Source: Candidatus Poribacteria bacterium (lineage in GTDB: Bacteria; Poribacteria; WGA-4E; WGA-3G). Taken from it: a stretch of 64,000 nt of DNA. This document shows positions 2,087 through 41,717 of the stretch, in pieces (within the stretch, counting starts at the first letter, position 1; each line of letters opens with the position of its first letter). Position numbers and translations under genes: made by a program. Location: the NCBI GenBank assembly GCA_965242965.1, contig OZ251518.1, forward strand, positions 5,504,001-5,568,000, given 5' to 3'. Below the pieces are notes generated by a model. It worked only from the letters and a program-made list of their open reading frames with translations. It ran no database searches and had not been told where the DNA came from.

Positions 2087-3055
2087 CTATTTCTTCTTCA
2101 GTTCTCCCCATGTTGTCGTTAACTGGGACGCTTGAGGTTCAACTGGAAAAGAAGATGGATGCCACCAGTCCGGGTCCTCATTATTTGTTGAATCCGAACT
2201 AGAGGTGAGTCGCTGCCAATTGTTAGTCCCTCGCGTTATTTTGTAGATATGCTCGGTCTCGGTAACAAACATATCAAACACTGTCACAAGGAGTTCGCCA
2301 CCGTACGGAGCAACAGCAGGACTGTATACGAAATGATCTTCCCACCAATTCAGGACTGTCGCTTCTCCACCCCAACGGGGCACAGAATAAATCCCATCGT
2401 AGGTAGTCCATAGCCATGAAAAAACGATGTAGTTACTTTGTGGCCCCCATGCAGGATCCGAGATCGTAGCATCAGCAGTGCCACGGACAATTCTCCTTTT
2501 GATGCCCGTTTGGACGTTAATAACGTAAAGAGAAGCTCCCGTGTAAACGTTAAATCTGGAACCTCCGCTAATAAACGCTATATGTGTTCCATCTGGGGAC
2601 CAGGCGGGATTTGCTCCGGTAACGAGAAACTCCGAAGCACCCGTGAATCGGTTGTAGATGTAGATATCCTCCTCGTTCCACGAGTAAGCGATTCTTCGTC
2701 CATCTGGTGCCCACGTCGGCGATGTCCTATGGCCTGAATTCCGTCTCACTCTCCGTTGGTTGCTCCCGTTGGCATTCATAATATACACATCGGGTTGCCC
2801 ACCGCGTTCGGAGACAAAGAGAATCTCTGTTCCATCGGGAGACCATGTCGGATCGTAATCGTCCGCGAGATCCGTGGTTAAGATGGTTAGCCCATCTCCG
2901 TTCGGTCCCATAGAACAAATGTCTAAATCGCCAAGGTTGCAGGTATACACGATTTTGCCGCTTTCCCAGATGCTGGCGAAAACGGGTGAGCAAATGCTTG
3001 CATACCCTAATGCCAAGGCGATGACACAAAACGCGAGATACCGCGTAACTTTCAT
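2087..3055 (-). CDS. secreted TolB-like/PD40 beta-propeller protein
   Basis: Signal peptide, repeated PTWSPDG/PAWSPDG motifs, C-terminal VEPQASQLTTTWGELKKK. Confidence 0.85.
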   Translation of the reverse strand: MKVTRYLAFCVIALALGYASICSPVFASIWESGKIVYTCNLGDLDICSMGPNGDGLTILTTDLADDYDPTWSPDGTEILFVSERGGQPDVYIMNANGSNQRRVRRNSGHRTSPTWAPDGRRIAYSWNEEDIYIYNRFTGASEFLVTGANPAWSPDGTHIAFISGGSRFNVYTGASLYVINVQTGIKRRIVRGTADATISDPAWGPQSNYIVFSWLWTTYDGIYSVPRWGGEATVLNWWEDHFVYSPAVAPYGGELLVTVFDMFVTETEHIYKITRGTNNWQRLTSSSDSTNNEDPDWWHPSSFPVEPQASQLTTTWGELKKK

Positions 3056-3159
3056 AAAAATTCCTCCTATTGATTCATTAATACGCTAACCAAATTGTGT
3101 TAACAATAGACATGACACGACGCGTGGAATTAGCATTCCTCGCGTAAGAAAAAAGATTT

Positions 3160-22281: not shown

Positions 22282-23136
22282 ATGACTACCACTCCAATCC
22301 TCCAGGGCGAACCGTTCAGCATGGAGAAGACGGCGCAGATTGCCCAACAATTTTTCCGCGATGGATTCGTTCATATTCCCGGTGTATTAACAGACGCGGA
22401 AGTCACCGCGCTCCGCGAGAAAACCGATGAACTCTTTGCAGATCCAGAATTGGCGGAGAGAACCAATCCAACCCTCGCCGATGTGAGATACATCCAGATG
22501 GGCGCGCATTCCGAATCGGGAGAGCAACAGCCGTTCATCTTGCGAAATACGATTGAATTGGACGCGCTTTTTCGCGATATGCTCCTCCGAGAACCGATAC
22601 TCAGTCTCGCAGAGGCGATTGTCGGCGAAGATTGTAAGTTTTGCGGACAGAATGTCCTGCGTAACTTGCCAGGGCTGTCTATTGATAGGTGGCATGTCGA
22701 CGGTTCTGTCCATTTCCCCGTTACCGATGAGATGCCGCACCACGACCCGAGGCTTCGGATGCCGGTGATGTGGTTCACCGTGCAGATGGCACTGTCGGAC
22801 ATTGATTCACTTGAGCACGGTCCGACGCAGTATGTGCCGGGTAGCCACTATTCAGGCAGGCATCCTAACGATGCCGAGAACCCTGAATTTGAGGGAAACA
22901 CGCCTGTCTCGGTTTTCTGCAAGGCAGGCGACATTTATCTGCAGGACCCGCAGTGTTGGCACCGCGGCGCGCCGAACCTTTCAAAGCGAACGCGCTATAT
23001 TTTGCAATCGCAATACGCCGCCTACTGGGCATATTGGCGGTTTAGCCTCTGCAATAGTGTGCCGGTACCGAAAGACGCTCTTCAGAATTCCAGCGAACGG
23101 TTGTTGCGTTTATTGGGAAATCCTCTTCACGCCTGA
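22282..23136 (+). CDS. phytanoyl-CoA dioxygenase (PhyH) family protein
   Basis: WHVD, GPTQYVPGSH, AGD and WHRG motifs. GAGGAGG RBS. Confidence 0.9.
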   Translation: MTTTPILQGEPFSMEKTAQIAQQFFRDGFVHIPGVLTDAEVTALREKTDELFADPELAERTNPTLADVRYIQMGAHSESGEQQPFILRNTIELDALFRDMLLREPILSLAEAIVGEDCKFCGQNVLRNLPGLSIDRWHVDGSVHFPVTDEMPHHDPRLRMPVMWFTVQMALSDIDSLEHGPTQYVPGSHYSGRHPNDAENPEFEGNTPVSVFCKAGDIYLQDPQCWHRGAPNLSKRTRYILQSQYAAYWAYWRFSLCNSVPVPKDALQNSSERLLRLLGNPLHA

Positions 23137-24096: not shown

Positions 24097-24427
24097 CCCG
24101 TGGCGCGGGGGCCTGTCCCCCGCGATCGTCCGACGAGAAGACGGGCCCCCGTTACCGTAGCGCGGGGGCCTGTCCCCCGCGATCGTTGCATGGCGAGGGA
24201 CAGGCCCTCGCCCTACGGTGCAAGGAACCGTTCTTAGTCCCGTAGCGCGGGGGCCTGTCCCCCGCGATCGTCCGACGAGAAGACAGTGCCCCCGGTCCCG
24301 TAGCGCGGGGGCCTGTCCCCCGCGATCTCTCGCGTGCATGAACGATGGCGAGGGACAGGCCCTCGCCCTACGAAAAAACGGCCGGGTCCCGTTCGTTGCA
24401 TGGCGAGGGACAGGCCCTCGCCCTACG
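24097..24427. repeat. REP array
   Basis: Four CGTRGCGCGGGGGCCTGTCCCCCGCG units and three inverted GGCGAGGGACAGGCCCTCGCCCTACG units. Confidence 0.9.
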
Positions 24428-24458
24428 AAAAAACGACACTGTCAAGGAAAATTCAAAA

Positions 24459-27400
24459 ATGCCGCAAAAAAAAGAGAACGTCATCACAAGTGCAGTAGTC
24501 GATGTGCTAGAGAATTTATTACCTCGCCAAGCAGGATGGGAAGTCGAAGAACAAGAAAGCGTCCTTGACGGAAACGCGAAGACCCCGGATATCGTCGTGA
24601 AACGACTCCGACACGAAACAGTCGGCATCGATGCAAAATGGCAGGTCGGCGATGGCGAGAAGGAACTCCAATCTGTCCGCGATAAATACTGGGGACAGCC
24701 GCTAATCTCCGAATTCCGCGGCAACAGTGCCGAGTTGAATACGGTGATGGTTATCCGGTATCCTGAATGCTTCCGCGGTCTGAAAAGATGGGAGTTACAG
24801 GAGATTCTTCCTAACGCCGGTGACATTGAGTATGTCCTAGTAGGCCAGTCAAAGGGGGTTGATTACCGTTTCCCGCGTTTGGGATTCGCAACCGGCAATC
24901 TCACGGATGTGGCAAACGCTATCCGAGTCGGCGCGGTGCCGAGTGAGCGCATCAAAGCCGCGGCAAAACAGATGAAAGCAGACGTTGAGGGTGCCGCGCG
25001 CGACTTGCACAACGCAGTATCTCAAAAATCCGTGATAGGCGAGGAACTGAAGGAGATTTTGGACCAGGTCGAATATAGTGAACAGGCTTCGCAGGTAGCA
25101 TGCTTGATAATTGTGGACGCATTCGTGTTCCAAAACTCTCTAGCCGGGGAACTGAGTCTGAAATCGGTTCGGCCGCCTGCCTATTACCAAGTGAACGGCA
25201 TCGACCTGAAATCGGTAGTGGCAGATTGGGATGCGATACTGAACGTCAACTACCACCCGATTTTCCAAGGCGCGCGGGATATGCTGTCCCGAGCGTTTAC
25301 CTACGACGCGGCGATGGCGAAAAAGGTGCTAGAGGAATTGTGCGATATTGCCTGCACGCTAATCGAGTCACACCTCCCACAAATCCACGAATTAGCGGGT
25401 GAGGTATTCCAAGAGCTGCTAGTGGACAGGAAGAACGTCAAGGCGAACTACACGTTGTCAGAGAGCGCGGCGTTCATCTCGGCACTGGCATGTCCGAGTC
25501 TGCCTGAGGAATTGACGCTGGAAACGCTGCCGAAAGTGGCGGATTACGCCTGCGGGACAGGAGCCTTGCTGAACGGCGTTTACAAACGCATCCAGCAGCT
25601 CTGGGAAGAGCGGAAAGGCGAAACAAGCGTCTGCATCCATCAGCACATGCTTGAGAATAATCTGGCGGGCTGCGACATCTTCACACACTGCACCCACTTA
25701 ACGTTCGCGGCGATGGCGAGCGCGCATCCCCAAGTGACACTCGGCGCAACCCGGGTCATCACCGCTCCCCACGGTAAAGTCAGCGAGACTGAATTCAAGA
25801 CAGGTTCGTTGGAGTTGCTAGATAACCAAATGCTATTTGACGCGTTGGATGCGTTTGACAAGCAAGCGAGCGGGGCTGAAGAAGCGACAGCAGAACTCAA
25901 GCGCGAATTCCCCGATGGCGAGATGGATATTGTCATCATGAACCCCCCGTTCCTGACGAACAGCGCGGACAATAATGCGAAGAATCAGAAGCTAGTCTTC
26001 GGTTCTCAGTATCGGAGTAAGGCAGAGCAGGAACTGATGCTGGAGGAACTAGGCAAGAAGAAATCGCGGGTTGGACATGGAAAAGTCCCATACTCCTATT
26101 TCGTGGAACTTGCTGATTTGAAGTTGCGCGACGGCGGACGGATGGCGATGATTCTGCCAGCATCGGTTTTCACAGTTCCTTCGTTTAAGAAGGTGCGCGA
26201 GATGTGGGCGAGGGAATATCACAACGTGCTCGTTGTGACTATGGCGCATAATAACGCGTTTTCTGCCGATACGACTATCGCAGAGTGCATGGTTATCGCA
26301 GACAAAGGCGTTGACAAGAATACAGGCAGGGCGAAATTCGTATCCCTCAGTGAGCGTCCAGGCAACCTACTTGCATCGCAAGTTTTGGCAACCGAGATAG
26401 GACGCAAGGAAGTCACGCGGCGATTGGAAGATGATGCGCTTGGCGGTGAACCCTTCAAAATTGGCGGCGCAAGTGTGGCTAGTGCGTTAGATTGTCCCAT
26501 TGATGCGGACGAATGGGGTGTATCCTGTCTGAAGGCAATGTCGTTGGGACAGATTGCCTATCAACTAAGTCATGGAAACTTGCGGTTCCCCGGTTTAATT
26601 GACGCACTGGAGCTCCCAGTATGTCCGTTGGGCGAAATCGGGAAAGTAGGGGCCAGCGAACCTGACATCAAGCAGAAGGGTAAGCGTGGTGCGTTTGAGA
26701 TGCACGAACGTGAGTCTGCCGTGCAAGAAGGGTATGATGCCATCTACAAATCGAAGAACATCACGTCGCAGCGGGCGATGCAAACCGTGCCAGACTACAA
26801 GGCGCAGATCAAACCTTTTAACGTAGAAAAGGCGCACAGGATTTTGCGTGAGCATAATAGCCGAACGCATTATCAGATGTATTTGGTTTACTCCGCTAAT
26901 TCGATGTTCTCGCATTGGACTGAAAGTCCATCGATCGGTGTTAATTTAATTACCAACGTTCGTTTGTCGGAATCGAAGTATGAAGCCGCATGGACACTCT
27001 GGACAAACTCAACACTGGGATTACTCTGTCACTGGGCGAGGGCTGGCAAACAGCAACCGGGACGCGGGATACTCAAATTAACGGGTTTGAAATCAGTGCC
27101 GACGCTGGATGTCCGTGAACTCTCGGATGTGCAATTAGCCGCGGCGGAGCATGTGTTCGCCGAATTGAAAACTGCACGGATGCTTCCCTACAACGAATGC
27201 CTCTGGGATGCGTGGCGACATATCCTTGATGCGCGGTTGCTTTCAGAGGTGCTTGGTATTGATGCGCCTGCTGTCCACGAGGCGATGCAGACGCTTCGTG
27301 AGATGTTGTCCGCTGAGCCGAGCATCACGGGTGACAAACAGAGCGTTTGCGACTTGGCGGCGGAGCGAGAAGAATACGGTTACGCCGATGACAGCGCGAT

Positions 27401-27500
27401 ATTGGCGACGCAGCAGCTTCAGTTGCGGATGCGAGGTATCCCGTTACCTGATGCATCCGCTGAATTTGAAAAGGCGCGGGCGGAAGCAAAGAAATCTTGA
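24459..27500 (+). CDS. Type IIG-like fused restriction endonuclease / N6-adenine methyltransferase
   Basis: N-terminal PD...DAK nuclease motif, VADYACGTGALL (motif I) and DIVIMNPPF (motif IV). The extension to 24345 is REP-derived. Confidence 0.85.
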   Translation: MPQKKENVITSAVVDVLENLLPRQAGWEVEEQESVLDGNAKTPDIVVKRLRHETVGIDAKWQVGDGEKELQSVRDKYWGQPLISEFRGNSAELNTVMVIRYPECFRGLKRWELQEILPNAGDIEYVLVGQSKGVDYRFPRLGFATGNLTDVANAIRVGAVPSERIKAAAKQMKADVEGAARDLHNAVSQKSVIGEELKEILDQVEYSEQASQVACLIIVDAFVFQNSLAGELSLKSVRPPAYYQVNGIDLKSVVADWDAILNVNYHPIFQGARDMLSRAFTYDAAMAKKVLEELCDIACTLIESHLPQIHELAGEVFQELLVDRKNVKANYTLSESAAFISALACPSLPEELTLETLPKVADYACGTGALLNGVYKRIQQLWEERKGETSVCIHQHMLENNLAGCDIFTHCTHLTFAAMASAHPQVTLGATRVITAPHGKVSETEFKTGSLELLDNQMLFDALDAFDKQASGAEEATAELKREFPDGEMDIVIMNPPFLTNSADNNAKNQKLVFGSQYRSKAEQELMLEELGKKKSRVGHGKVPYSYFVELADLKLRDGGRMAMILPASVFTVPSFKKVREMWAREYHNVLVVTMAHNNAFSADTTIAECMVIADKGVDKNTGRAKFVSLSERPGNLLASQVLATEIGRKEVTRRLEDDALGGEPFKIGGASVASALDCPIDADEWGVSCLKAMSLGQIAYQLSHGNLRFPGLIDALELPVCPLGEIGKVGASEPDIKQKGKRGAFEMHERESAVQEGYDAIYKSKNITSQRAMQTVPDYKAQIKPFNVEKAHRILREHNSRTHYQMYLVYSANSMFSHWTESPSIGVNLITNVRLSESKYEAAWTLWTNSTLGLLCHWARAGKQQPGRGILKLTGLKSVPTLDVRELSDVQLAAAEHVFAELKTARMLPYNECLWDAWRHILDARLLSEVLGIDAPAVHEAMQTLREMLSAEPSITGDKQSVCDLAAEREEYGYADDSAILATQQLQLRMRGIPLPDASAEFEKARAEAKKS

Positions 27501-27517: not shown

Positions 27518-27780
27518 CCCGTAGTGCGGGGGCCTGTCCCCCGCGATCGTCCAACGAGAAGACGGTGCTCCCGGTCCCGTAGCGCGGGGGCCTGTCCCCC
27601 GCGATCGTTGAATTGCGCGGACGCTGGCGAGGGAAACCCGCTCGCATGCGCGTGTGGCATGCGAGGGCCCAAGCCCTACGATGAAGGAGGGGCTTTCTGC
27701 CGCCGCGGCCTCGGTAGGCGAGCCGCCCTATTGCATCGAGACCAGGAGGTCTCTCCTACGGGGATTTATGAAACCCCCTC
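27518..27780. repeat. REP array with one MITE end
   Basis: ~90-bp near-identical match to 24239-24327. TATGAAACCCCCTC at the right end. Confidence 0.85.
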
Positions 27781-27799
27781 ACTATTGGGGATACCGGCG

Positions 27800-28078
27800 T
27801 TAGGTTTTGTTGTTTCGGTGGTAGTCCAGCAAGGTTTGTAATACATCGTCAAACGTTGGCGCGCGAAGGGCGGTGTAATGTAACTGCTCCAAGAGTTGCA
27901 AATCGGTGAGCGCCTCAAATGTAGGTTTGAAGAGAGCCACATCCGAATCGTCAAAGCGTGCATCCAATACCGCGAGGAGGTTATCAATGCCGAGTTGGAT
28001 GCCTTCTTTGCGTGCCTTTTGGCGTGCTTCCTCCAAGGGCTTCTCCATGAGGTCTTGTAAAAGCGATGCATGTTTCAT
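27800..28078 (-). CDS. stand-alone copy 2 of the Rpn C-terminal module (92 aa)
   Basis: GGAGGAAGAC-ATG start. MKHASLLQDLMEKPLEEARQ...ALRAPTFDDV is paralogous to the C-terminus of 28607-29572. Confidence 0.8.
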   Translation of the reverse strand: MKHASLLQDLMEKPLEEARQKARKEGIQLGIDNLLAVLDARFDDSDVALFKPTFEALTDLQLLEQLHYTALRAPTFDDVLQTLLDYHRNNKT

Positions 28079-28197
28079 GTCTTCCTCCGAAAGCATGGTG
28101 CGGGCTGTCTCCGAGTCATGGGCGCGATGGCGGCAAGAACGGTTCCGTTTCTCGGCGTTCGTCCCACGCGGCTTGGGATGCGCCGCGTGGGTTGGTG

Positions 28198-28488
28198 TTA
28201 GGCTCCGTTGTTTCGGTAGTCCTTCAAGGTTTGCATCACATCGTCAAACGTTGGCGCGCGCAGGGCGGTGTAATGTAAATGCTCCAAGAGTTGCAAATCG
28301 GTGAGGGCCTCAAATGTAGGTTTGAAGAGAGCCACATCCGAATCGTCAAAGCGGGCGTCCAATACAGCAATGAGATCAGTAATGGCACTTTTTTGTTTCC
28401 CGAGTTCGATGCCCTCTTGAAATGCCTCTTCGCGTGCTTCTTGCAAGGGCTTCTCCATGAGGTGTTCGAGAATAGATGCATGTTTCAT
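28198..28488 (-). CDS. stand-alone copy 1 of the Rpn C-terminal module (96 aa)
   Basis: GGAGGAAGAC-ATG start. MKHASILEHLMEKPLQEARE...ALRAPTFDDVMQTLKDYRNNGA. Confidence 0.8.
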   Translation of the reverse strand: MKHASILEHLMEKPLQEAREEAFQEGIELGKQKSAITDLIAVLDARFDDSDVALFKPTFEALTDLQLLEHLHYTALRAPTFDDVMQTLKDYRNNGA

Positions 28489-28606
28489 GTCTTCCTCCGA
28501 AAGAATGGTGTGGGCTATCTCCCGGTCATGGGCGCGATGGAGGCCGGAACGGGTGCGTTCTTGGCGTTCGTCCCACGCGGCTTGGGATGTGCCGCGTGGG
28601 TTGGCG

Positions 28607-28885
28607 TTAGGTTCCGTTGTTTCGGTAATCCTTCAAGGTTTGCATCACATCGTCAAACGTTGGCACGCGAAGGGCGGTGCGAAACAGCAGCCTAAGGAGT
28701 TGTGCATCGGTGATGGCCTCAAAGATAGGTTTGTAGAGATCTACATCCGAATCGTCAAAGCGGGTGTCTAATACCTCGATGAGGATCTCAATGCTGTTTT
28801 CTCGCGCGCCGAGTTCTCTTCCCTCTTGGCGTGCCTCTTGCAAGGGCTGCTGCATGAGGTGTTGGAAAATAGATGATTGTCTCAT
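28607..28885 (-). CDS. predicted nested small protein (RpnS-like, 92 aa) translated from an internal start
   Basis: Internal TCGGAGGAAGAC-ATG (S-E-E-D-M), the same start context as both stand-alone copies. Confidence 0.65.
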   Translation of the reverse strand: MRQSSIFQHLMQQPLQEARQEGRELGARENSIEILIEVLDTRFDDSDVDLYKPIFEAITDAQLLRLLFRTALRVPTFDDVMQTLKDYRNNGT

Positions 28886-29572
28886 GTCTTCCTCCGAAAT
28901 AATGGTGTAGATTGTCTCCGAGTCATGGGCAAGATTGCCAAATATCCCGGTAGCCATCAGTAAGTTGTCGATATTCGCCGTGTCAAGCGGCAATTGCCGC
29001 GTCGTCTCGACGCACTGCCGCAGCCACGTGACACTATCCACTCCCGCCGGTGGTTGCATCAGCGGCAGAAACGGCATCAAACCCGGCGGGCGCGCTTCCA
29101 GAAGCGGTCCTCCCTCAAGTTCATAAAGCCGAACCACTTCGTATTCCGAGATGAACCGTTGTCCGGGAACATCTACATTTTTAAAATAACCCCCCGGGTC
29201 CCTGCGACCGGCGGGTGGATAAAAGTAGATGACATACGACCGGATAGGAAGTTCGTTGTCCTCAGTGCATCTCCCCCGGTAGCCGGCAATTCGGCGTTCA
29301 ATCGAAATTGGGTAACTATCGTGCAGCTGATATTCACGATGGATGAGCGTCGGTTCGCCTTCCAGCGAGATTTTCGTCAGGCTATCCATGCGTCGGACAT
29401 CCATCGCCGGGAGTTCAATATCAATATGCTCTATGATTTCAAAGTCGGCGGTGCCGAGTATCAGGCGCAACATGTCCTTTGGAAATGCACGCGCCGCGTG
29501 CTTTGCGGCAATATCGTACCGGTCCACGGGCAAGTTGTCCCAGTCAAAGGGTGTATAAATGCTGTTTTCCAT
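28607..29572 (-). CDS. Rpn family (recombination-promoting nuclease, PD-(D/E)XK-like) protein
   Basis: YDIAAK, RRMDSL...IHREYQ, YEVVRLYEL, GLMPFLPL and QEGRELG motifs. Confidence 0.8.
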   Translation of the reverse strand: MENSIYTPFDWDNLPVDRYDIAAKHAARAFPKDMLRLILGTADFEIIEHIDIELPAMDVRRMDSLTKISLEGEPTLIHREYQLHDSYPISIERRIAGYRGRCTEDNELPIRSYVIYFYPPAGRRDPGGYFKNVDVPGQRFISEYEVVRLYELEGGPLLEARPPGLMPFLPLMQPPAGVDSVTWLRQCVETTRQLPLDTANIDNLLMATGIFGNLAHDSETIYTIISEEDMRQSSIFQHLMQQPLQEARQEGRELGARENSIEILIEVLDTRFDDSDVDLYKPIFEAITDAQLLRLLFRTALRVPTFDDVMQTLKDYRNNGT

Positions 29573-29851
29573 ACACAATAGGATACCATAGACGCGCCGT
29601 GGTTGTCAAGTTTTTCTGACGAGTTATAGCGATTTCGTTCTTCTATCCTGCCGAAAGTCGGTTTCACTATGCATAATTTTAGCAGATCTGGTATAATTAT
29701 TGCAATGTTTAAAATCTGAAAAATTTTGAATGAATTCGCCTTAAAGGGGTTAAAGTTTTAAAATCCAATTTTCGGTAGGAGGGACATCCTTGTCCCGATA
29801 GTGCTTACATTGCACCTCGGCGGGCACTCCTTCGGAGAAAACCAAATAATA

Positions 29852-30107
29852 GAGGGTGTTTCATAAATTTATCCCTTGAGGGGAGGCGCATCGGGCCCAC
29901 CACTGTAGTTCGGGATCGCCCGATCCCGAACGGGTCAAGATCAGGCGATCTTGACCTACAGACCTGGCGCGCGAGCGATGGCGAGGGAAACCCGCTCGCA
30001 TGCGCGTGTGGCATGCGAGGGCCCAAGCCCTACGTGAAGGAGCGGCGTTTTTTCACCGTAGCGCGGGGCCTGTCATCGCAACGTTGAGCGATTTATGAAA
30101 CACCCTC
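29852..30107. mobile_element. MITE copy 5
   Basis: GAGGGTGTTTCATAAAT...ATTTATGAAACACCCTC. Target duplication AAATAATA (29844-29851 and 30108-30115), directly before the RBS. Confidence 0.92.
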
Positions 30108-30126: not shown

Positions 30127-32460
30127 ATGTCCGAAGAGCAAAACAAAAAAACAGAACTGCAACGGGGCACGATTGACGAATTGCCCCCATTTATTGATAA
30201 AACACTGAAGCACCTAGAGATTCGGTTTGAGCAGATTCGGTTCGCTGTCCAAAGCGATGTCAGTTCCTCAGGCGTTTTCGGCGAGGAATGGTTTGTAATG
30301 ACAGACGCGGCGGTTTTTACCGTCGCCGGTGATGGCAGTGTGATACACTTCATTCCGTATAAAAATGTGCTCGGCATCCGCGCCGAAGTGATGATAGACG
30401 CAGGGCTGCTGGTGTTAGAATCGCGCGAGGGCACCGTCGATCTGATTCGGTATTCCAACGGTTGCGCGGCGAAGTTCGGCTTCGTTGCACGCTTCATCGG
30501 TGATGAAATTGAGCACCGAGATGGGAAACGCGACGAAGCACCGATATGGGACTATAAAGTCGAAGAACAGGTTTGCGCATCGTGCGGATTGCCGTTGCCT
30601 GACGAATTCTCGCCTTGTCCGGCATGCACCAAAAAACATAAGGTAATGCTGCGGATTGCGTCGTATCTCAAACCGTATCGCACCAAAGCAATCCTTTTCA
30701 TCGCTTTCGTGATTAGCGGCACACTGATTTCGCTGGTGCCGCCTTACTTCTCCCGCATCTTGATAGACGACATTCTGGCGTTGAACGAAGCGGCGGCTGC
30801 GCAAACTCCCTCCGAGACGCAGATCGGCGCGATATTCCGCGCGATTCAACCAGTGACGATGGCACTAGCGATTGCGGTTGGCTGTCTGCTCGTCACGATG
30901 ATAATCCGCGAAATTATCACCGTCTTCCGATTAAGGTTGGGCGCGTGGTTGACATTCCGCGTGGCGGCAAGTATCCGAGCGCATGTCTATCGGCATCTAC
31001 ACAACCTCTCTATTCGGTTCTTTGACAAGCGCAAAACCGGTACGGTTATCTCGCACATCACCGAGGACAGCGAACGGCTTCAGGACTTTATGTTAGAAGG
31101 GTTGTCCTTCCTCGCCGTGGAGTTACTGCTGTTCTTCGGCATCGGCGGCATGCTATTTTGGATGAATTGGAGGCTTGCTTGCTTCATCTTGATTCCCATT
31201 CCTATTATCGTCTTCGGCGCGGGATGGTTTTGGAAAATAGTGCGTAACCTGTGGCACCGCGCCTGGCGACGCAGATCGAAGTTGTTTGATGTCGTGAACG
31301 ATTCTGTCTCCGGTATCCGAGTCGTGCGCGCCTTCGGAAGGCAGCGCGACGAGGTAACTCGGTTTGAGGAATCCAACATTGACGCACGCGATTATGAGAC
31401 ACACGCGGAACTCATCTGGGCGACTTACTATCCGCCGCTGATGTTTGCTGTGTCGCTCGGCACACTCATTGTATGGTATGTTGGCGGACTGGAGGTCCTC
31501 GGCGGCACAATGTCACTCGGCACGCTGATGGCGTTTCAAAGTTACTTAATGATGTTTTATGAGCCGCTGCGCTACATCAGTCCGCTCATCAACTGGGCAT
31601 CCCGTTCCATGACAGCGGCGGAACGCCTCTTTGAGGTAATTGACTCGCAACCGGAACAGATCGACGATGGCACGTTGGAATCAATGCCGAACATTACCGG
31701 TGAGGTGCTGTTTCACAACATGACGTTCGGCTACGAGTCGCATAAACCGGTGTTGAAGGACATCAACCTCCACGTCAAATCTGGGGAAATGATCGGACTC
31801 GTTGGGCATTCGGGTGCAGGGAAATCGACGCTGATTAATCTGATTTGCCGGTTCTATACGCCGGATGCCGGCCGCTTAGAAATCGATGGCGTAGAGATTG
31901 AGAAGATTCAACTTGATGATCTTCGGCGACAAATCGGGGTAGTGCTGCAAGAACCGTATCTGTTCAGCGGCACCATCGCCGAGAACATCGCCTATGCGCA
32001 TCCGGATGCCACGATGGAGGAGATTATCACAGCGGCGAAAGCGGCAAACGCGCACGAATTCATCGTCAAATTCCCCGATGGCTATGATACTGAAGTCGGG
32101 GAACGCGGGGGCAGTCTCTCCGGCGGCGAGCGACAGCGTATCTCGATTGCGCGGGCCATTCTGCACAACCCGCGCATCCTGATTCTTGACGAAGCCACGT
32201 CATCGGTGGATGTTGAAACCGAGAAAAAAATTCAACAGGCAATTGACAGACTTGTGAAAAACCGCACCACCTTCGCGATTGCGCACCGTCTCTCCACCCT
32301 CCGAAATGCCGACAGGCTTTTCGTGATTGAGAAAGGACGCGGCGTGGAGTGCGGCTCTCACGAAGAACTGATGGAACAGAAGGGTATTTACTACAAACTG
32401 GTTGAGACGCAGCGGGAAGCGGCGAATGTGCGCGCAGCGGCGCAGGCAGTAGAAAGGTAG
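30127..32460 (+). CDS. ABC exporter (fused permease/ATPase) with N-terminal extension and zinc-ribbon motif
   Basis: GHSGAGKS, LSGGERQR and ILDEATS motifs, TM domain, CASC...CPAC. Confidence 0.93.
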   Translation: MSEEQNKKTELQRGTIDELPPFIDKTLKHLEIRFEQIRFAVQSDVSSSGVFGEEWFVMTDAAVFTVAGDGSVIHFIPYKNVLGIRAEVMIDAGLLVLESREGTVDLIRYSNGCAAKFGFVARFIGDEIEHRDGKRDEAPIWDYKVEEQVCASCGLPLPDEFSPCPACTKKHKVMLRIASYLKPYRTKAILFIAFVISGTLISLVPPYFSRILIDDILALNEAAAAQTPSETQIGAIFRAIQPVTMALAIAVGCLLVTMIIREIITVFRLRLGAWLTFRVAASIRAHVYRHLHNLSIRFFDKRKTGTVISHITEDSERLQDFMLEGLSFLAVELLLFFGIGGMLFWMNWRLACFILIPIPIIVFGAGWFWKIVRNLWHRAWRRRSKLFDVVNDSVSGIRVVRAFGRQRDEVTRFEESNIDARDYETHAELIWATYYPPLMFAVSLGTLIVWYVGGLEVLGGTMSLGTLMAFQSYLMMFYEPLRYISPLINWASRSMTAAERLFEVIDSQPEQIDDGTLESMPNITGEVLFHNMTFGYESHKPVLKDINLHVKSGEMIGLVGHSGAGKSTLINLICRFYTPDAGRLEIDGVEIEKIQLDDLRRQIGVVLQEPYLFSGTIAENIAYAHPDATMEEIITAAKAANAHEFIVKFPDGYDTEVGERGGSLSGGERQRISIARAILHNPRILILDEATSSVDVETEKKIQQAIDRLVKNRTTFAIAHRLSTLRNADRLFVIEKGRGVECGSHEELMEQKGIYYKLVETQREAANVRAAAQAVER

Positions 32461-32508
32461 AACCTCAAAACGGGCGGATGGAAACGACATCCAGCCTACC
32501 GAATAATT

Positions 32509-33060
32509 ATGGAAAACTCAGACAAAATTGTCCCTGTAGAAACAGCGCAGGAATCGCCTGCCGCCGATGACTTCACACCGCGTTATTTAGACGCGTCGAA
32601 GTTGAGATTGACACGCTCACCGGTAGGCACGCCGCGCCTTGAGATTCAGGGAGAGGTGTGTCACTTACGCGTCATCGTGCGTCGGTTGGTGCCGCTCAGC
32701 AATCCGGAACAGTATATTTCATTCTCCGCCGATGAGGATACCGAGCTCGGCATTCTCGTTGAGCCTACGCAATTGGATTCGGAAAGTCTGCGGATTCTCA
32801 ATGAAGAGTTGCATCGCCGCTACTTCACCCCGGTCATCGAGAAAATTTATCGGGTGAAAGAGCAGTTCGGCATTCATGAGTGGGAGGTGAAGACGGCCCG
32901 CGGGCGCGTGACGTTTTCGGTGCGCGGGTTGAACCAGAACGTCAAACAGGTGCCGCCCGCGCGGCTTTTCGTTACGGATGTTCGCGGCAACCGTTACGAT
33001 ATTCCCGATTATCGGAAGTTGGATGCCCAGAGTTTCCAACACATCCAGCGGCACCTCTAA
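32509..33060 (+). CDS. DUF1854 family protein
   Basis: RRLVPLS...EELHRRYFTP...WEVKTARG...DVRGNRY. Typical partner of this ABC transporter subfamily. Confidence 0.8.
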   Translation: MENSDKIVPVETAQESPAADDFTPRYLDASKLRLTRSPVGTPRLEIQGEVCHLRVIVRRLVPLSNPEQYISFSADEDTELGILVEPTQLDSESLRILNEELHRRYFTPVIEKIYRVKEQFGIHEWEVKTARGRVTFSVRGLNQNVKQVPPARLFVTDVRGNRYDIPDYRKLDAQSFQHIQRHL

Positions 33061-35923: not shown

Positions 35924-38900
35924 TTATGATTCTTCCTCCACAACAGCAATTTCCTCCGAAGTCAGTTCGTAAAGCGTGTAGACATAATTATCAACCGCTT
36001 TTTCTAAATCCGCGGTATCTCCACCCGGGTCGGCTTTTTTGACAGACAAGATCGCATCAACGAGGTGCTCAATCTGCGCGACGATGGCGCGGTTGTCAGC
36101 AGTAATCGGTGGCACGTGGCTCTGCTCCACATACTGCTTTTTCCACTCAAACGCATAGCCGAGCGGAATCCCTAAATTCGTAAACTCCCAATTGAAGAGA
36201 CGCGAATTCATGCACCCCAAGAGGTACTTGATGTTATCTTCGGAAGAGGTTAGTAAATTCGCGGGCGCGCAAATGAATTCACCGGGCGCAGAATAACAGA
36301 AAGCACTGCTATAAGCGATATTCCCCCAAGCAATTTTCGCCTTCTCAAATTCCGCGTGGTAAGCGCAATTGCGAAGGTTATAGGGTGTGTTTCCCTTATC
36401 TTGACGCTTTTCCAGTTGTGGATAGAATGTCTCAAGATATGCCTTAACTGCACCGTAATCGTTCACGTCGATTGCTGGAACATCGCGGTACCCGTTGTGC
36501 GTATCAATCAGCCAGAGTTTCGCCCACTTCGCGTGATACCGATTAACATCTCTGCCTCGCAAAACGGGTTTAATAATTTCTGCCGACTTGGGCTCCGCCT
36601 TTATCAGGGTTTCCTTCGTATCGTCGTCAATGAGAAAAGCGGTGTTGTAACCGGTGATAATTCCCCGATAGATGGAAATGTCCCAGTCCTTAAGCGGCGT
36701 GCCGACTGCCTCAATTTTCGCTTGAATCTGTCGTTCAATGTCGGACAGGATGACCCATTGTGCGCCGGGCTCTGGCAGCGGGAAATGGACTCCGTTTTCC
36801 GCTGTGTATGCGGCGAGGGAGGTTGCGGTGTGTTTATATTTTTCGGTGACGGTGCAGGCGATGGAGTCCTCGCGAGGGACAGGCCCTCGCGCTACGGGGG
36901 AAGCGCGGGCTCTGCTGCAGAGGAGGATGTTGGTATCTACGGTGGCATCGAAGATGTCGGGCCCGAGGTCCAACAACTTTATCGGGTGGACATGCTCTAC
37001 GAAAAATTGACGCAACGCTTTTCCGTAGCCGGCGCGCATCCATTTGTTGCTGGTGATGTAGCAGAGATGCCCATCGTTGGCGAGCAATTTCACGCCGCGT
37101 TCGTAGAAAAGGCAGTAAATGTCGCCGGTGCGTGCGAAGGTTTCAAAGCCTGCGTCTTGGTAAAGCCTGCCGAGTGCGCCGCCGTTTTTCTGCAATTGGA
37201 CATACGGCGGATTACCAATGACAACATCAAATCCCTCTTGAATGCCGAACATTCGTTCCGGTGCAAACCACTCGGCAACAGCATGCGTATCATAGCGATC
37301 CCACGACGAGATCTTCTCGGCATCCTCGGCGGGCATGCCGACTTCGCGTAATTCCGACGCTAATGCCTCGCGCAACGCTTTGTCTTGCCGTTGACATGCT
37401 AGTTTTTGTGCGCGCGTCACGGCGTGAAAATGCCGTTCGCCGTTGAGAAGTATCTCGCGCTCAAGCTCTTGTGTCCTTGAACTCGTGAACGTCCGCTCGC
37501 CTGACAAGCCAAGCAGTGTATTCGCCGCGAGGAAGCGCGTCTCCAAATTCGGCAACGGCCGAATGCCGAAGTTCGCCGCGTCGGCATCTGGTTCTTGCTC
37601 AATCGCCAACGAGATGAAAAAGCGGAGTTTCGCAATCTGACACGCCACAGGTTGAATGTCCACGCCGTAGAGGCAATTCTGGATGAGATATAACTTCCGA
37701 CCGAAATCGGAATCGCGATAACGTTTGAACGTCTCATCAATTTCTAGGAGTTCTTCGGGGCGCGTTGCGTCATCGGTTGTATCAAAGGCGGCAGCGGCGC
37801 GCTGTTGGGCGCGTTCGCGTTGTAAACTTTCCCAGCGGCGGTTATCGGCATCGAGTCGCCGCAGCACGAGGGTGAGTTTATGCAACAAGCCCATCGGAAA
37901 CGCACCCGAGCCGACGGCAGGATCCAAGAGTTTGAGCCCGGAGATGGCGCGCACGAGGTTCTCTGTCTCGTCGGCATCGAACCATTCGCTGGCATCGTCA
38001 AATGCCTGCGCATAGTCCAGCAGGTAGCGGAGCCGTTCATCCCAGAACGTTGCATCGCCATCGGTTGGCGCGCATTTTTGTTTGAACACGGCGACGAGTG
38101 CCTCGTCTACCATGTAATCGACGATGTCGCGCGGGGTGTAGTAAGAACCGGTGGCTTTGCGCGCCGTCGATTGCGTTTCAGGATTGTAGGCACCAAGGAG
38201 GTTTTCAAACACCTTGCCGAGCAACTCGGGGTCCAACGCAACTTCCTGTTCTACCGGCGTGTTCTCCTCCACGGTGAATTTATAGTGAGAGAAGAGCGGG
38301 AAGAGACCCGAGGTTTCGTCAAAGAATAACTTCGCGGGAACGTGGAGTTTCCGCCGCGCGTTTTCGTCATCGGTGAAACAGTCGATGCGAGAGCCGCCGT
38401 CGCGCGTGCCCTCAAACGTATCCAAGCAGTCAAACAGCCCACCGTTGACAAACGGCACCTGTTTCAGGTATGCCAGAAACGCATCGGGAGTGCGGAGCAA
38501 GTCGGCATAGCGATACTTGTTGGGATTGCGATGCGCTTGGCGGTTACGCGTGCTGAAGGCCCGCGTGTCTATCGGCGTATTGAGCGTCGCGAAGAAGAGA
38601 TTCTGCAGTATCGCCTGATAATAGTCGGATGTCTCCAGCGAAAACTCTTTGAGATGCGTCGCTGCAGCGGCTTTGTCAAAGAGTGCCATCGGCACCAAAT
38701 TCTTCTCTTTCAGGAACCAGATAAAGAGTAGGCGGGTGATGAGACGGATAACCTGAAGTTGCGGCGCATCGTCGGGAAAACGGCATTCGGCGACGGCCCA
38801 CTGATACCATTCATACAACTCGCCGTAGAATTGGCGGTTGAGTGCCTCGGTGTTCAGAACGCCTTCCCACGCTTTGTGCAACGTGTCAAAATTGTGAACG

Positions 38901-39546: not shown

Positions 39547-40146
39547 TTATTGCCTGTCTCGCAATTGATGGAGGAGGCGCACGATGTCCCGATAGCATTT
39601 GTCAAACGAAGATGCTTGCCGCGCTTGTTTAAAGTCGAAGCGTGCAGTGAGTGCCGGCTGGTCTAACGTTTCCCTATACTTTTTGTTGCTCTCCATCTGC
39701 CGGGTCAGCCACTCCTTTGCTCCCCGGATTTCCTCAGGGTTATTTGGAGGTTGAAGATTGTTTTTTAACCCTCGTTGTCCGCTGAGTGACTCGGCTGCTG
39801 CAAGAAACCACGCTTCAAACTCGCATTTCGCGAGGACGACAGCGATTGGCAGATTGCTTTGCACTTTTAACGCTTGCTGAAGCAGTTCGGGACCTAGTTT
39901 CGCGGGACAGTCATCGTCGCTGTCAAGAATGATGAATATGCCGCCTTGCCTGCCAACTTTCCGAGATGCCGCGTCAATAGTTTCCTCAAGGTTTTCCACC
40001 TTGACAATCCTATTTCTGTTAACGCGGATCGGGTACGTGATAATAGGCAATTCGGGATAAAGGTCTGCTGCTACCCGCCGAATCAGAACGGGGACAGCTT
40101 CCACATCGCCTTGTCCTTCAACAATGCAACCGATTTTGACTGGCAC
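39547..40146 (-). CDS. DUF4276 family (TOPRIM-like) protein
   Basis: IVEGQGD, LDSDDDCP and EFEAWFLA motifs. Confidence 0.8.
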   Translation of the reverse strand: MPVKIGCIVEGQGDVEAVPVLIRRVAADLYPELPIITYPIRVNRNRIVKVENLEETIDAASRKVGRQGGIFIILDSDDDCPAKLGPELLQQALKVQSNLPIAVVLAKCEFEAWFLAAAESLSGQRGLKNNLQPPNNPEEIRGAKEWLTRQMESNKKYRETLDQPALTARFDFKQARQASSFDKCYRDIVRLLHQLRDRQ

Positions 40147-40162
40147 CTGGGTATTTCCTTAT

Positions 40163-41356
40163 TCATTTGTATTGAAACAAACGGAGTTGTCTGACCTTTT
40201 CGACAGGAAAGACATGTGCTGGGTCCGGTGGCAATTGCATCATGCTCAGGAGTTGCCCTATTGTAAACAGCCGGTCTTTCAAGACAGATCTGGTTACCTC
40301 ATCCACAGGGCCGATTGATGTGATTCCCTCAGAGGCTTCAACCGCGAGGAACGATTCCGCCTTCAAGTCTTTGTTATTAAGGAGTTCCGGACTGTGGCTG
40401 GTGATGAGCACCTGAGTCGTGTTGGCGGCTTGCCGAAGACTATCAAGTAGCACGCCTGTTGCTAGTGGATGCAGCGCGATTTCCGGCTCTTCAATCCCGA
40501 TGAGCGGCACGGGTTTTTGCGCGTCGTGATTTTCCTGAAGCAGGGCCACGAGAGTGCCCAATATGTGGAGTGTTCCATCGGACATATTGTTCGCGAGAAA
40601 CCGCCACGGGTGCTTTGCCCCTGCAGTGTCTTGCCGGAAGGCTAGCGTTTCCTTCGCTCCGATTTTCTTGACTTCTACGCCGCGCACGCCGCGGACAACG
40701 AGTGCCAGATATTCCTCAACGTTTTGTTTCACAGAGAGCGGCAGTTGACGGAGGACACTCGTTAGGTTGCTCCCGTCGTTCTTCAGGATGTCGCCAAGGT
40801 CAGGTGTTTGGAGCTCTCGGATTTTATCTAGGTTGAGATTGTAAAATCCCATCCGAGAAAGAGCATCGTAGACTTTGCGAAATTCGGGGAGGCCAGACGC
40901 GTTGACTAAGTAGAGCCGGTCGGTGGCAGCTGCAGGTGCCACCTGCATGCTCGTTTTGGTTACCGTGCCTTTATCAACTCGGAAGTATTCCTCCTGAACC
41001 CTGCATTCTTCCGTTTGAACCGCATATCCGCCACGTGGCCGGCAACCGATGCGAAAGGCATAATGTCCGGTAATCCCTTCAGGCAAAGTGAATTCTAACC
41101 GAATGCTGAAGTGGTTCGGATGCCCGCGAGAACGACGACGAACATCGTTGATGCCGCCACGAGAACGTAAGGCGTGGTCCAACGATGAATGCAAAGAATC
41201 GGCGACAAAGCGCAGCGCATCCAGAAAGTTGCTCTTGCCCGCGCCGTTGGGACCCACGAGGAACATCAAGGGGCCCAGTCGCACATCGCACGTTGCGATG
41301 CTCTTATAGTTTTTGAGGATAACTCTGGTGATAAAGGTTGAGTCTTTGATGGCCAT
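40163..41356 (-). CDS. AAA_21/ABC-type ATPase
   Basis: LKNYKSI, VGPNGAGKSN, MSDGTL, IEEPE and ITSHSP motifs. The extension to 41485 is repeat-derived. Confidence 0.9.
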   Translation of the reverse strand: MAIKDSTFITRVILKNYKSIATCDVRLGPLMFLVGPNGAGKSNFLDALRFVADSLHSSLDHALRSRGGINDVRRRSRGHPNHFSIRLEFTLPEGITGHYAFRIGCRPRGGYAVQTEECRVQEEYFRVDKGTVTKTSMQVAPAAATDRLYLVNASGLPEFRKVYDALSRMGFYNLNLDKIRELQTPDLGDILKNDGSNLTSVLRQLPLSVKQNVEEYLALVVRGVRGVEVKKIGAKETLAFRQDTAGAKHPWRFLANNMSDGTLHILGTLVALLQENHDAQKPVPLIGIEEPEIALHPLATGVLLDSLRQAANTTQVLITSHSPELLNNKDLKAESFLAVEASEGITSIGPVDEVTRSVLKDRLFTIGQLLSMMQLPPDPAHVFPVEKVRQLRLFQYK

Positions 41357-41368
41357 GGCTGTATTCTT

Positions 41369-41717
41369 GAGCAGGATTTCCAAGATTTCCAAGATTTCGC
41401 AGGATGATGTCTTCCGTAATAGGAGCAGGATTTCCAAGATGCTGCAAGATTTCACAGGATGGAGCAGGATTTCCAAGATTTCCAAGATTTCGCAGGATGC
41501 TGTTTTCCGTTTGATACCAGTCTTTTTTCCTTGGCGGCATTATTCGTAACGCTATTCTGCCGTTGCGGGAAACGTCTCTCGCACCAGACCTATAATCCTG
41601 GAAATCCTGCTCAATCTTGAAAATCCTGCTTCGTAACGCGATTCGGACTTTGCGAAGAACGTATCTCTCACAATGCCTATAATCCTGGAAATCCTGCTCA
41701 ATCTTGAAAATCCTGCT
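41369..41717. repeat. inverted clusters of 9-bp-period AATCYTG repeats
   Basis: CAGGATTTCCAAGATTTCCAAGATT blocks at 41369-41498 and AATCCTGGAAATCCTGCTCAATCTTG twice at 41593-41717. Confidence 0.85.

Follow-up and report, generated by a model that had tools for sequence, protein, structure and literature searches.

The locus described here lies in a 64,000-nt stretch of DNA (the window, within which positions are counted) from Candidatus Poribacteria bacterium GCA_965242965.1 (OZ251518.1, 5,504,001-5,568,000), a Poribacteria-like genome of 5.7 Mb from an uncultured sponge symbiont. It comprises one long gene and two small stand-alone genes behind it, all on the reverse strand, which we relate below to the Rpn (RpnL/RpnS) gene-within-gene systems. 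The RpnL-like long gene (28607..29572, ATG at 29572) encodes 321 aa, with an N-terminal PD-(D/E)XK-like nuclease domain (residues ~1-212, 28937..29572) carrying a D63 ... E80-x-Q82 ... R94 motif, followed by a C-terminal helical module. An internal Shine-Dalgarno (SD) sequence GGAGG (28891..28895) is located 5 nt 5' of an internal ATG at 28885, from which a nested RpnS-like open reading frame (ORF) of 92 aa, identical to long-form residues 230-321, extends to the end of the gene (28607..28885). Two ~400-bp tandem units follow downstream of the long gene, with ATG-to-ATG spacings of 397 and 410 nt. Unit 2 (28198..28488, SD GGAGG at 28494-28498) is a stand-alone RpnS-type gene of 96 aa, and unit 3 (27800..28078, SD GGAGG at 28084-28088) is another of 92 aa, with an in-frame ATG upstream at 28096 that would give an alternative 98-aa product; the 92-aa version is found as a called protein (P0106). 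Each unit duplicates the last ~92 codons of the long gene together with the GGAGG-N5-ATG internal start and ~45 nt 5' of the ATG. In a DNA alignment of the three module copies homology begins at that same distance upstream, and the mean column identity is 84%. An earlier note on this DNA had described the layout, with its internal GGAGG-ATG at 28885 and 92-aa protein and its two ~400-bp units of 96 and 92 aa, and the coordinates could be re-derived in full.

As the same note had remarked, the ends of the three modules are conserved and their middle varies, the gap between the EAR and VLD motifs being 18, 22 and 17 residues in the nested copy, unit 2 and unit 3, respectively. In the AlphaFold2 (AF2) model the nested module consists of a long helix (residues 234-272) and then three short helices, and in the model of unit 2 (predicted local distance difference test, pLDDT, 81.9) a long helix is likewise accompanied by three short ones. 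The middle part that varies is a helix of variable length: that of unit 2 is four residues longer than in the nested copy, and that of unit 3 is one residue shorter. In the long form, the length-variable part of this first helix spans residues ~247-266 (28775..28834, reverse strand) and is made of four-residue xGxx-type repeats, at the predicted interface with unit 2.

A further 88 protein clusters homologous to unit 2, 61-164 aa in size, are called as separate genes in public data. Helix length could be parsed in 82 of the resulting 89 small proteins, and the lengths from head (..PL.EA) to tail (VLD.RF) fall into the series 14/18 and 19/23/27/31/35/39/43/47, with one outlier of 30. The repeats begin at about residue 18-19 after the Met, and the same xGxx repeats are visible in long forms (alignment A2). 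The same is described for RpnS of E. coli in passages of Zhong et al. 2023 (PMC10400941), where the first helix varies by four-residue repeats starting 8-20 residues after the Met. To judge by these alignments, the variable middle is the four-residue repeat helix already known for RpnS. Two paralog loci in the same genome, C1:2042591-2044348 (reverse strand) and C1:221936-223581 (forward strand), have AHAQEQA-like and EAEIRAKV-like helix repeats, not xGxx, and at paralog 2043074 the stand-alone module comes immediately behind the stop codon, without a change of frame.

The internal start recurs throughout the family. The genome has 18 full-length paralogs, of which 17 carry a Met at the profile column of the internal start, and all 17 of these are preceded by an SD-like motif 4-17 nt upstream, compared with 7/137 (~5%) control internal in-frame ATGs of the same paralogs. 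We extended the comparison to other species with a set of 82 full-length genes at 80 loci from metagenome-assembled genomes (MAGs) labelled Poribacteria, Latescibacterota and Gemmatimonadota, the groups in which the clade was found. Here the Met is present in 77/82 and the SD-like motif in 74/82, against 18/491 (~4%) of control ATGs, although these counts, like those from the paralogs, overstate the number of events, as kin are not independent. The five relatives without Met have Val at the column, behind K-G-G-I or Q-E-G-I as seen at protein level only, and may thus begin with a GTG that has an SD of its own. The peptide context of the internal Met varies (SEEDM, RRLTM, PEGIM, KEEM, EEVRM), and across paralogs the GGAGG persists in different codon phases. 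By this comparison, the nested small protein proposed in the earlier note gains support, and the putative internal SD plus start is a family feature kept at the nucleotide level across groups.

Upstream of the long form the situation is different. In 12/18 paralogs, one of which is the locus gene, no SD-like motif precedes the start codon closest to the N-domain, and several of these SD-less starts, that of the locus gene among them, have a -10-like (TATAAT-like) box 4-9 nt before the ATG. At the locus, a promoter-like TTGACA-18-TATCCT (29580..29609, reverse strand; from a consensus scan only) ends 7 nt before the long-form ATG. The lack of an SD together with a -10-like box so close to the start codon suggests, by consensus matches only, that long-form mRNAs may be leaderless and that translation of the small form may be favoured. 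TTGACA/TATAAT-like promoters with the -10 box at this distance were seen at many long-form genes, among them that of the locus and paralogs 120339, 221936, 1913271, 2043074 and 5496174.

The family placement of the long protein is built from several weak signals. Pfam returns no match for the long gene, unit 2 or unit 3 proteins even at E<=10, PADLOC has none for any of the three, and NCBIfam TIGR01784 (Rpn family) gives the long protein 16.4 bits against a cut-off of 52.1; the match to an Rpn or PDDEXK profile anticipated in the earlier note was not obtained at threshold. The best PF04754 score anywhere in the genome is 14.1 bits (cut-off 21). As neither the PF04754 nor the TIGR01784 cut-off is reached, we file the long protein as a distant relative rather than a model member. 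Six-frame searches of the genome nevertheless place all five sub-threshold TIGR01784 matches on the long gene's paralogs, and three of four sub-threshold PF04754 matches on the N-domains of these paralogs; PF11103 and PF14261 (DUF4351) give no match at E<=1, and none of the three locus modules reaches the PF14261 cut-off (25 bits). Only one of 84 close database homologs carries a precomputed Pfam family (P0045, PF12510), and the family profile from alignment A2 finds 0 matches at E<=10 among PDB sequences.

Residues D20, K24, D63, E80, Q82, R94 and Y98 are invariant across the 26 homologs of alignment A2. According to passages of Kingston 2017 (PMC5350276), D11, D63, E82, Q84 and R94 of E. coli RpnA are defined by mutation, and their counterparts in the long protein are D20, D63, E80, Q82 and R94. 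A local hhalign comparison of the family with four E. coli Rpn proteins is colinear across 246 columns (E 0.0014, probability 17%) and pairs D20, D63, R94 and Y98 with their E. coli counterparts; E-x-Q falls two positions out of register. The family profile collects 5591 representative proteins at E<=0.001, a count that probably includes annotated Rpn relatives. Pfam was scanned over 53 of the 150 distant homologs listed, and among these P0282, which matches the family profile at E 8e-35, exceeds the DUF4351 cut-off (26.1 vs 25 bits), linking the two families transitively. Below cut-off, a further three of the 53 match DUF4351, and PF04754 and PDDEXK_2 are matched by two each; all these matches lie at the expected N- or C-terminal position. 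The other families seen among them, also below cut-off, were Yae1_N (8 proteins) and GHMP_kinases_N (1). Yae1_N matches, which occur in 7/26 alignment members as well as in more distant homologs, were read as GxxxG-repeat look-alikes, not homology.

Structural comparisons point the same way. Clusters labelled DUF4351, Transposase_31 and 'Rpn family' are among the ESM-Atlas neighbours of the long protein at 0.96-0.97, and the AF2 model of the long protein (pLDDT 81.9) has an alpha/beta N-domain for which VIA-align recovers the PD-(D/E)XK nucleases SdaI (Z 6.7), NucS (6.4), VC1899 (5.9), Can2 (5.4) and XisH (5.3), as well as Bax1 and SfsA, the whole set lying at Z 5.3-6.7. On these weak but concordant lines, to which the four-residue steps of the first tail helix also belong, and with marginal signals in sequence and model, the long gene is a distant branch of the Rpn clan. 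The Rpn identity given in the earlier note thus holds in the sense of distant kinship, through the putative catalytic set and the concordant weak matches, but not as membership of any existing model.

Stand-alone copies are common in this genome. A module profile search finds 14 of them, 13 downstream of 9/18 long genes and one orphan, with 1-3 copies per array-bearing long gene and one locus where three copies follow each other with a 292-bp period. At 7/9 loci the stand-alone copies group with the module of the long gene that they follow, which argues that they arose locally and repeatedly; RpnCSs and RpnESs are likewise reported as derived locally in passages of Zhong et al. (PMC10400941). 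In more distant species, 7/80 loci have one downstream copy and none has two. Within the same taxonomic family, three genomes (G002, G004 and G007) have gene-plus-one and gene-plus-two arrays. The earlier note had called for a survey of copy number in relatives, and across paralogs and family genomes it ranges from the gene with 0 copies to the gene with 3. In the congener G002, the locus lies between the same flanking sequences as in the window (86% and 76% identity) and again has the long gene with two units behind it. The array thus predates the split of the two species, between which dS at the syntenic locus is ~0.75-1.5. In G004, a ~20-kb tandem run (C1:5265080-5284866; L112, L121, L125, L129) contains at least 7 long-form genes, several of them each followed by 1-2 stand-alone modules.

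It is very improbable that the units are recent unequal-crossover products that have no function of their own and are decaying. Tandem duplications are common at rpn loci in the passages of Zhong et al. (PMC10400941), ypaA of E. coli K-12 is annotated as a pseudogene in RefSeq, and two of the seven copies in distant species are damaged (L047 split over two frames, L030 partial), all as such decay would have it. However, every one of the 14 stand-alone modules in the genome has an open frame beginning at the conserved Met, in most cases with an SD-like motif in front of it; a second species retains the two-unit array at its syntenic locus, at the above dS; and the 88 further small-protein clusters vary by whole four-residue steps, not by frameshifts. 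Ratios of nonsynonymous to synonymous divergence (dN/dS, Nei-Gojobori) agree with this: unit 2 vs unit 3 gives 0.39 (Sd 14.5/59.8 sites, Nd 22.5/213.2 sites), the two units of the congener 0.38, two long/stand-alone pairs 0.33 and 0.13, and the nested copy vs the units 0.52-0.56; for the stand-alone tail genes behind nine of the paralogs the overall range is 0.13-0.45. These values argue against decay of the units, and the small ORFs, whose neutrality had been raised as a question at the outset, are intact and constrained.

As to pairing of the products, the long form and the unit-2 protein were modelled together as a complex, with a separate alignment for each chain. The ipSAE interface score was 0.67, the best of 3 controls being 0.00; this mark is reached by 116/157 solved complexes and 2/215 mismatched pairs. 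At least 88% of contacts are shared between runs, and the pLDDT of the partner is no lower than 83. The predicted interface is formed by the long helix of each chain (residues 236-271 with 4-46), with homologous glycines in register (G251/G26 and G255/G30), which suggests parallel GxxxG-type packing of the repeat region. The unit-2 protein is thereby predicted to be placed on the nuclease's own C-terminal helix. As the structure of RpnA-S is solved (7TH0, 49 residues, a three-helix bundle), the score may reflect likeness rather than binding.

We suggest, with a probability of roughly two-thirds, that the locus belongs, as a divergent member with two extra stand-alone small genes, to the gene-within-gene toxin-antitoxin/defence systems of the Rpn (RpnL/RpnS) kind. 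In the long form, a nuclease of the PD-(D/E)XK type, with D...E-x-Q as its active-site motif, would be joined to a C-terminal helical module and translated from a start without SD, possibly on a leaderless mRNA. The strong internal SD and ATG would yield this C-terminal module once more, as a separate 92-aa protein, which, by analogy with E. coli RpnS, may pair with the C-terminal helix of the nuclease and hold it inactive. The two downstream units would have arisen by tandem duplication of the 3' module including its internal start, and are most likely co-transcribed extra RpnS-type genes equivalent to the RpnSs of E. coli (ypaA). They would differ from the nested copy chiefly in the length of the pairing helix, changing by four-residue steps, and through homologous recombination the module on the nuclease and the units would trade segments of head, helix and tail. 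Translation of the small proteins, toxicity of the long form, neutralisation and any anti-phage role are all carried over, as presumed properties, from the E. coli model.

Several observations weigh against this proposal. All three locus proteins are without Pfam and PADLOC matches and without an above-threshold NCBIfam match. The hhalign probability of only 17% comes with the two-position shift of E-x-Q; the Z scores of the N-domain are only middling and may reflect a common arrangement; and Foldseek against PDB lists no match at E<=0.001 for the long-form or the unit-2 model, 7TH0 included. The dN/dS values below 1 could have been imported by gene conversion from the nuclease-attached copy. 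Lastly, the lengths from Met to RF are 41 in the nested copy, 45 in unit 2 and 40 in unit 3, and in E. coli a mismatch of one repeat abolishes neutralisation, specificity following repeat number (passages of Zhong et al. 2023, PMC10400941). With offsets of +4 and -1, units 2 and 3 may, on the E. coli rule, not neutralise the adjacent nuclease at all.

The length offsets lead to another explanation, in which the stand-alone copies neutralise other Rpn-like paralogs among the 18 nucleases, not the adjacent one, and so prevent cross-activation or raise the threshold of the trigger. Helix lengths are often unlike that of the cis nuclease and equal to that of a paralog elsewhere: the copy after 2257955 has length 33, as does the nuclease at the sister locus 3184709, its own nuclease having 45, and unit 2, at 45, has the same length as paralog 3436693 (also 45), which belongs to its clade. 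The dependence of E. coli specificity on repeat number, described in the same passages (PMC10400941), fits this scheme as well. We nonetheless consider protection in trans unlikely, as 5/13 copies at 3/9 loci (869102, 1155346 and 4823233) have exactly the cis length, all three copies at 4823233 included, and the small number of length classes makes chance matches possible. Moreover, copies cluster with their own locus at 7/9 loci, and in the complex model the partner of unit 2 is the adjacent nuclease, the +4 offset notwithstanding.

Within the proposed Rpn-type locus, modules are mosaic. In G002, the heads of the two units (2' and 3') are 100% identical in DNA; the tail of unit 2' is 96% identical to the nuclease-attached tail, and that of unit 3' has 72% identity to its own nuclease-attached tail and 81-82% to the tails in the window. 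The syntenic nuclease-attached tails of the window and G002 are 64% identical, as against 85% for the N-domains. Strain-level relatives of the window's long protein differ from it at 3-5/229 residues of the N-domain, and their modules differ at 8/92 (P0002) and 20/92 (P0003, with 3/229 in its N-domain), or are of another kind altogether (P0004, with a unit-3-type short helix on the nuclease). The stand-alone P0115 has the helix and tail of the window's nuclease type behind a stand-alone-type head, and tandem paralogs 3435469 and 3436693 have identical N-domain proteins and different modules. Together, the mosaic identities and strain variants indicate that segments move between nuclease-attached and stand-alone positions, and the crossover zone is near the head/helix junction (..PL.EAR..). 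The swappable C-terminal tips envisaged in the earlier note gain direct support from comparison, as segments exchanged across strains, but the crossover does not lie specifically in the AHDSET..SEEDM segment to which they had been tied. A metagenome contig (X1, X3, X4) joining 28438 to 28824, a putative chimeric module, was set aside as too weak, having a side of 31 letters; the contigs of the four DNA runs were short, none spanning the locus.

Such exchange raises the possibility that the units are a reservoir of alternative C-terminal modules, from which recombination re-tunes the pairing specificity of RpnL and RpnS together, and perhaps the trigger too, any added antitoxin dosage being secondary. 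The assembly of G002 unit 2' from the head of unit 3' and the tail of the nuclease (100% and 96%), the gap between tail and N-domain identity at the syntenic locus (64% vs 85%), the strain variants P0003, P0004 and P0115, the unlike modules of 3435469 and 3436693, and fusions of the N-domain with RpnSs noted in passages of Zhong et al. (PMC10400941) are all in line with it. We hold this view only tentatively. A silent donor would need no strong SD, ATG or intact frame, yet each unit keeps all three; mosaicism is an expected gene-conversion by-product in tandem paralogs and does not imply selected exchange; and the sole population-level joint is the weak one with a 31-letter side. A variant with equally doubtful standing is that of an expressed library of cassettes: recombination at the head/helix junction would move helix-plus-tail variants and re-specify toxin and nested antitoxin in one event, and the displaced variants, as free small proteins, would insulate or cross-regulate the 18 paralogous nucleases. 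If true, the cassette library would be a built-in diversification mechanism of a toxin-antitoxin defence family, elaborated in sponge symbionts.

The closest known arrangement to the proposed RpnL/RpnS-type locus is found in E. coli, at rpnE-ypaA (L134:21905-22804 for rpnE, 22817-23002 for ypaA) and rpnC. As at the locus, a nuclease gene with a small ORF nested at an internal start is followed, in rpnE-ypaA, by a further small-ORF copy just downstream on the same strand, and the downstream copies of rpnE and rpnC derive from their own upstream gene (passages of Zhong et al., PMC10400941). The first-helix four-residue repeats of E. coli RpnS are a further likeness to the locus modules. The locus differs in having two copies, with up to three elsewhere in the genome, against one after rpnE; in spacers of ~115 nt with a hairpin at a conserved position, against 12 nt; in the 9/18 paralogs of the genome that carry downstream copies; in protein scores under every Rpn, DUF4351 and PADLOC model threshold; and in a module of 92 aa, compared with the 49-aa RpnA-S chain in 7TH0. 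RpnA and RpnP2 share with it an N-terminal nuclease followed by a variable C-terminal oligomerisation helix, a mutationally defined catalytic set with invariant counterparts, and restriction-modification-type genes in the neighbourhood (passages of PMC5350276 and Zhong 2023). Against these, the sequence similarity is marginal (hhalign E 0.0014), and the host is an uncultured sponge symbiont. DUF4351 (PF14261) proteins, including the cyanobacterial DUF2887+DUF4351 'Rpn family', likewise have small helical modules, fused or as separate genes; unlike stand-alone DUF4351 proteins, the three locus modules have no PF14261 match.

An analogy with polymorphic toxins can also be drawn. Contact-dependent inhibition (CDI) and Rhs systems have arrays of orphan toxin-tip/immunity cassettes, variable C-terminal copies and a conserved recombination junction. 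Unlike those arrays, each unit here has its own strong start and encodes a putative antitoxin-like module in place of a toxin tip with its immunity partner, and there is no secretion context.

The suggestion that the locus represents an undescribed system does not stand, as RpnS in a separate downstream gene (ypaA after rpnE, a copy after rpnC), the four-residue repeats and fusions of the N-domain with a downstream copy (RpnSs) are already present in passages of Zhong et al. 2023 (PMC10400941). The apparent novelty lies in the unannotated clade, its 18-copy expansion in a sponge symbiont, the arrays of two to three copies at half of the loci and the clear shuffling of modules at strain and species level. 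Neither Rpn arrays in Poribacteria nor multi-copy RpnS arrays turned up in a literature search that left the supplementary information of Zhong et al. outside its range; that supplement may already list multi-copy arrays in other phyla, which would lower the novelty. The proposal extends the Rpn gene-within-gene principle to a large clade missed by current Pfam, NCBIfam and PADLOC models, and the E. coli model gains independent support, of a comparative kind, from the nucleotide-level conservation of the internal start across groups. Passages of Zhong et al. and Koonin's commentary (PMC10400984) ask why repeat number varies and what purpose extra RpnS copies serve, and the multi-copy arrays with strain-level shuffling are natural material for both. 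The practical gain is modest: a better annotation rule, and natural pairs of long form and small protein with differing helix length.

The spacers of the array contain two hairpins with the same GC-rich stem, CCCACGCGGC-N9-GCCGCGTGGG (perfect 10-bp stem, 9-nt loop): hairpin 1 (28572..28600) begins 7 nt past the stop of the long gene and hairpin 2 (28163..28191) 7 nt past that of unit 2, with none after the stop of unit 3. The identical 10-bp stem between the units, pointed out at the first inspection of the window, was recovered at these positions and occurred 0 times in 100 window shuffles. No third copy exists anywhere in the genome of 5.7 Mb, ruling out a genome-wide repetitive extragenic palindromic (REP) element; a canonical intrinsic terminator is ruled out as well, there being no T-run after the stem and no call from a terminator scan. 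Spacer RNA with hairpin 1 folds at -40.9 kcal/mol (z -3.1). The spacers of the congener G002 (L111:2540-2660 and 2940-3060) have another 10-bp stem, CCCCGAACGC ... GCGTTCGGGG, with a 26-nt loop, after each stop. Between the window and G002, the position of the stem after the stops is kept and its sequence is not, and a structural role for the hairpin is possible given this conserved position.

The surroundings of the locus suggest a loose defence neighbourhood, formed by two Eco57I-type enzymes and an AAA_21 + DUF4276 pair. The left neighbour (24345..27500, forward strand) is an Eco57I-type methylase-like protein of 1051 aa with type IIG / PglX-like PADLOC matches; a second large Eco57I-type methylase-like enzyme with a TaqI_C specificity domain (35924..38881, reverse strand) and the AAA_21 + DUF4276 pair (39547..41485) are both within 12 kb of the locus. 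Adjoining the locus on its other side (30127..33060, forward strand) are an ABC transporter, with fused membrane and ATPase domains and an N-terminal extension, and then a DUF1854 protein, and the remaining neighbours are housekeeping genes.

Two repeat families surround the array. A 36-nt-core repeat with 42 genomic copies occurs twice in the window, to the left and to the right of the locus (27644..27679, forward strand, and 29998..30033 in the same orientation), and so brackets it as a direct repeat. Metagenome contig depth across 27600-27812, around the left copy, is orders of magnitude over that of the gene. A GC-rich palindromic REP-like 17-nt core, GGGGGACAGGCCCCCGC, occurs 1980 times in the genome and is paired in many intergenic regions, the one directly downstream of unit 3 among them. 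Twenty copies lie in the window between 14046 and 58880 (e.g. at 27526, 27584, 24105-24305, 33093 and 33179).

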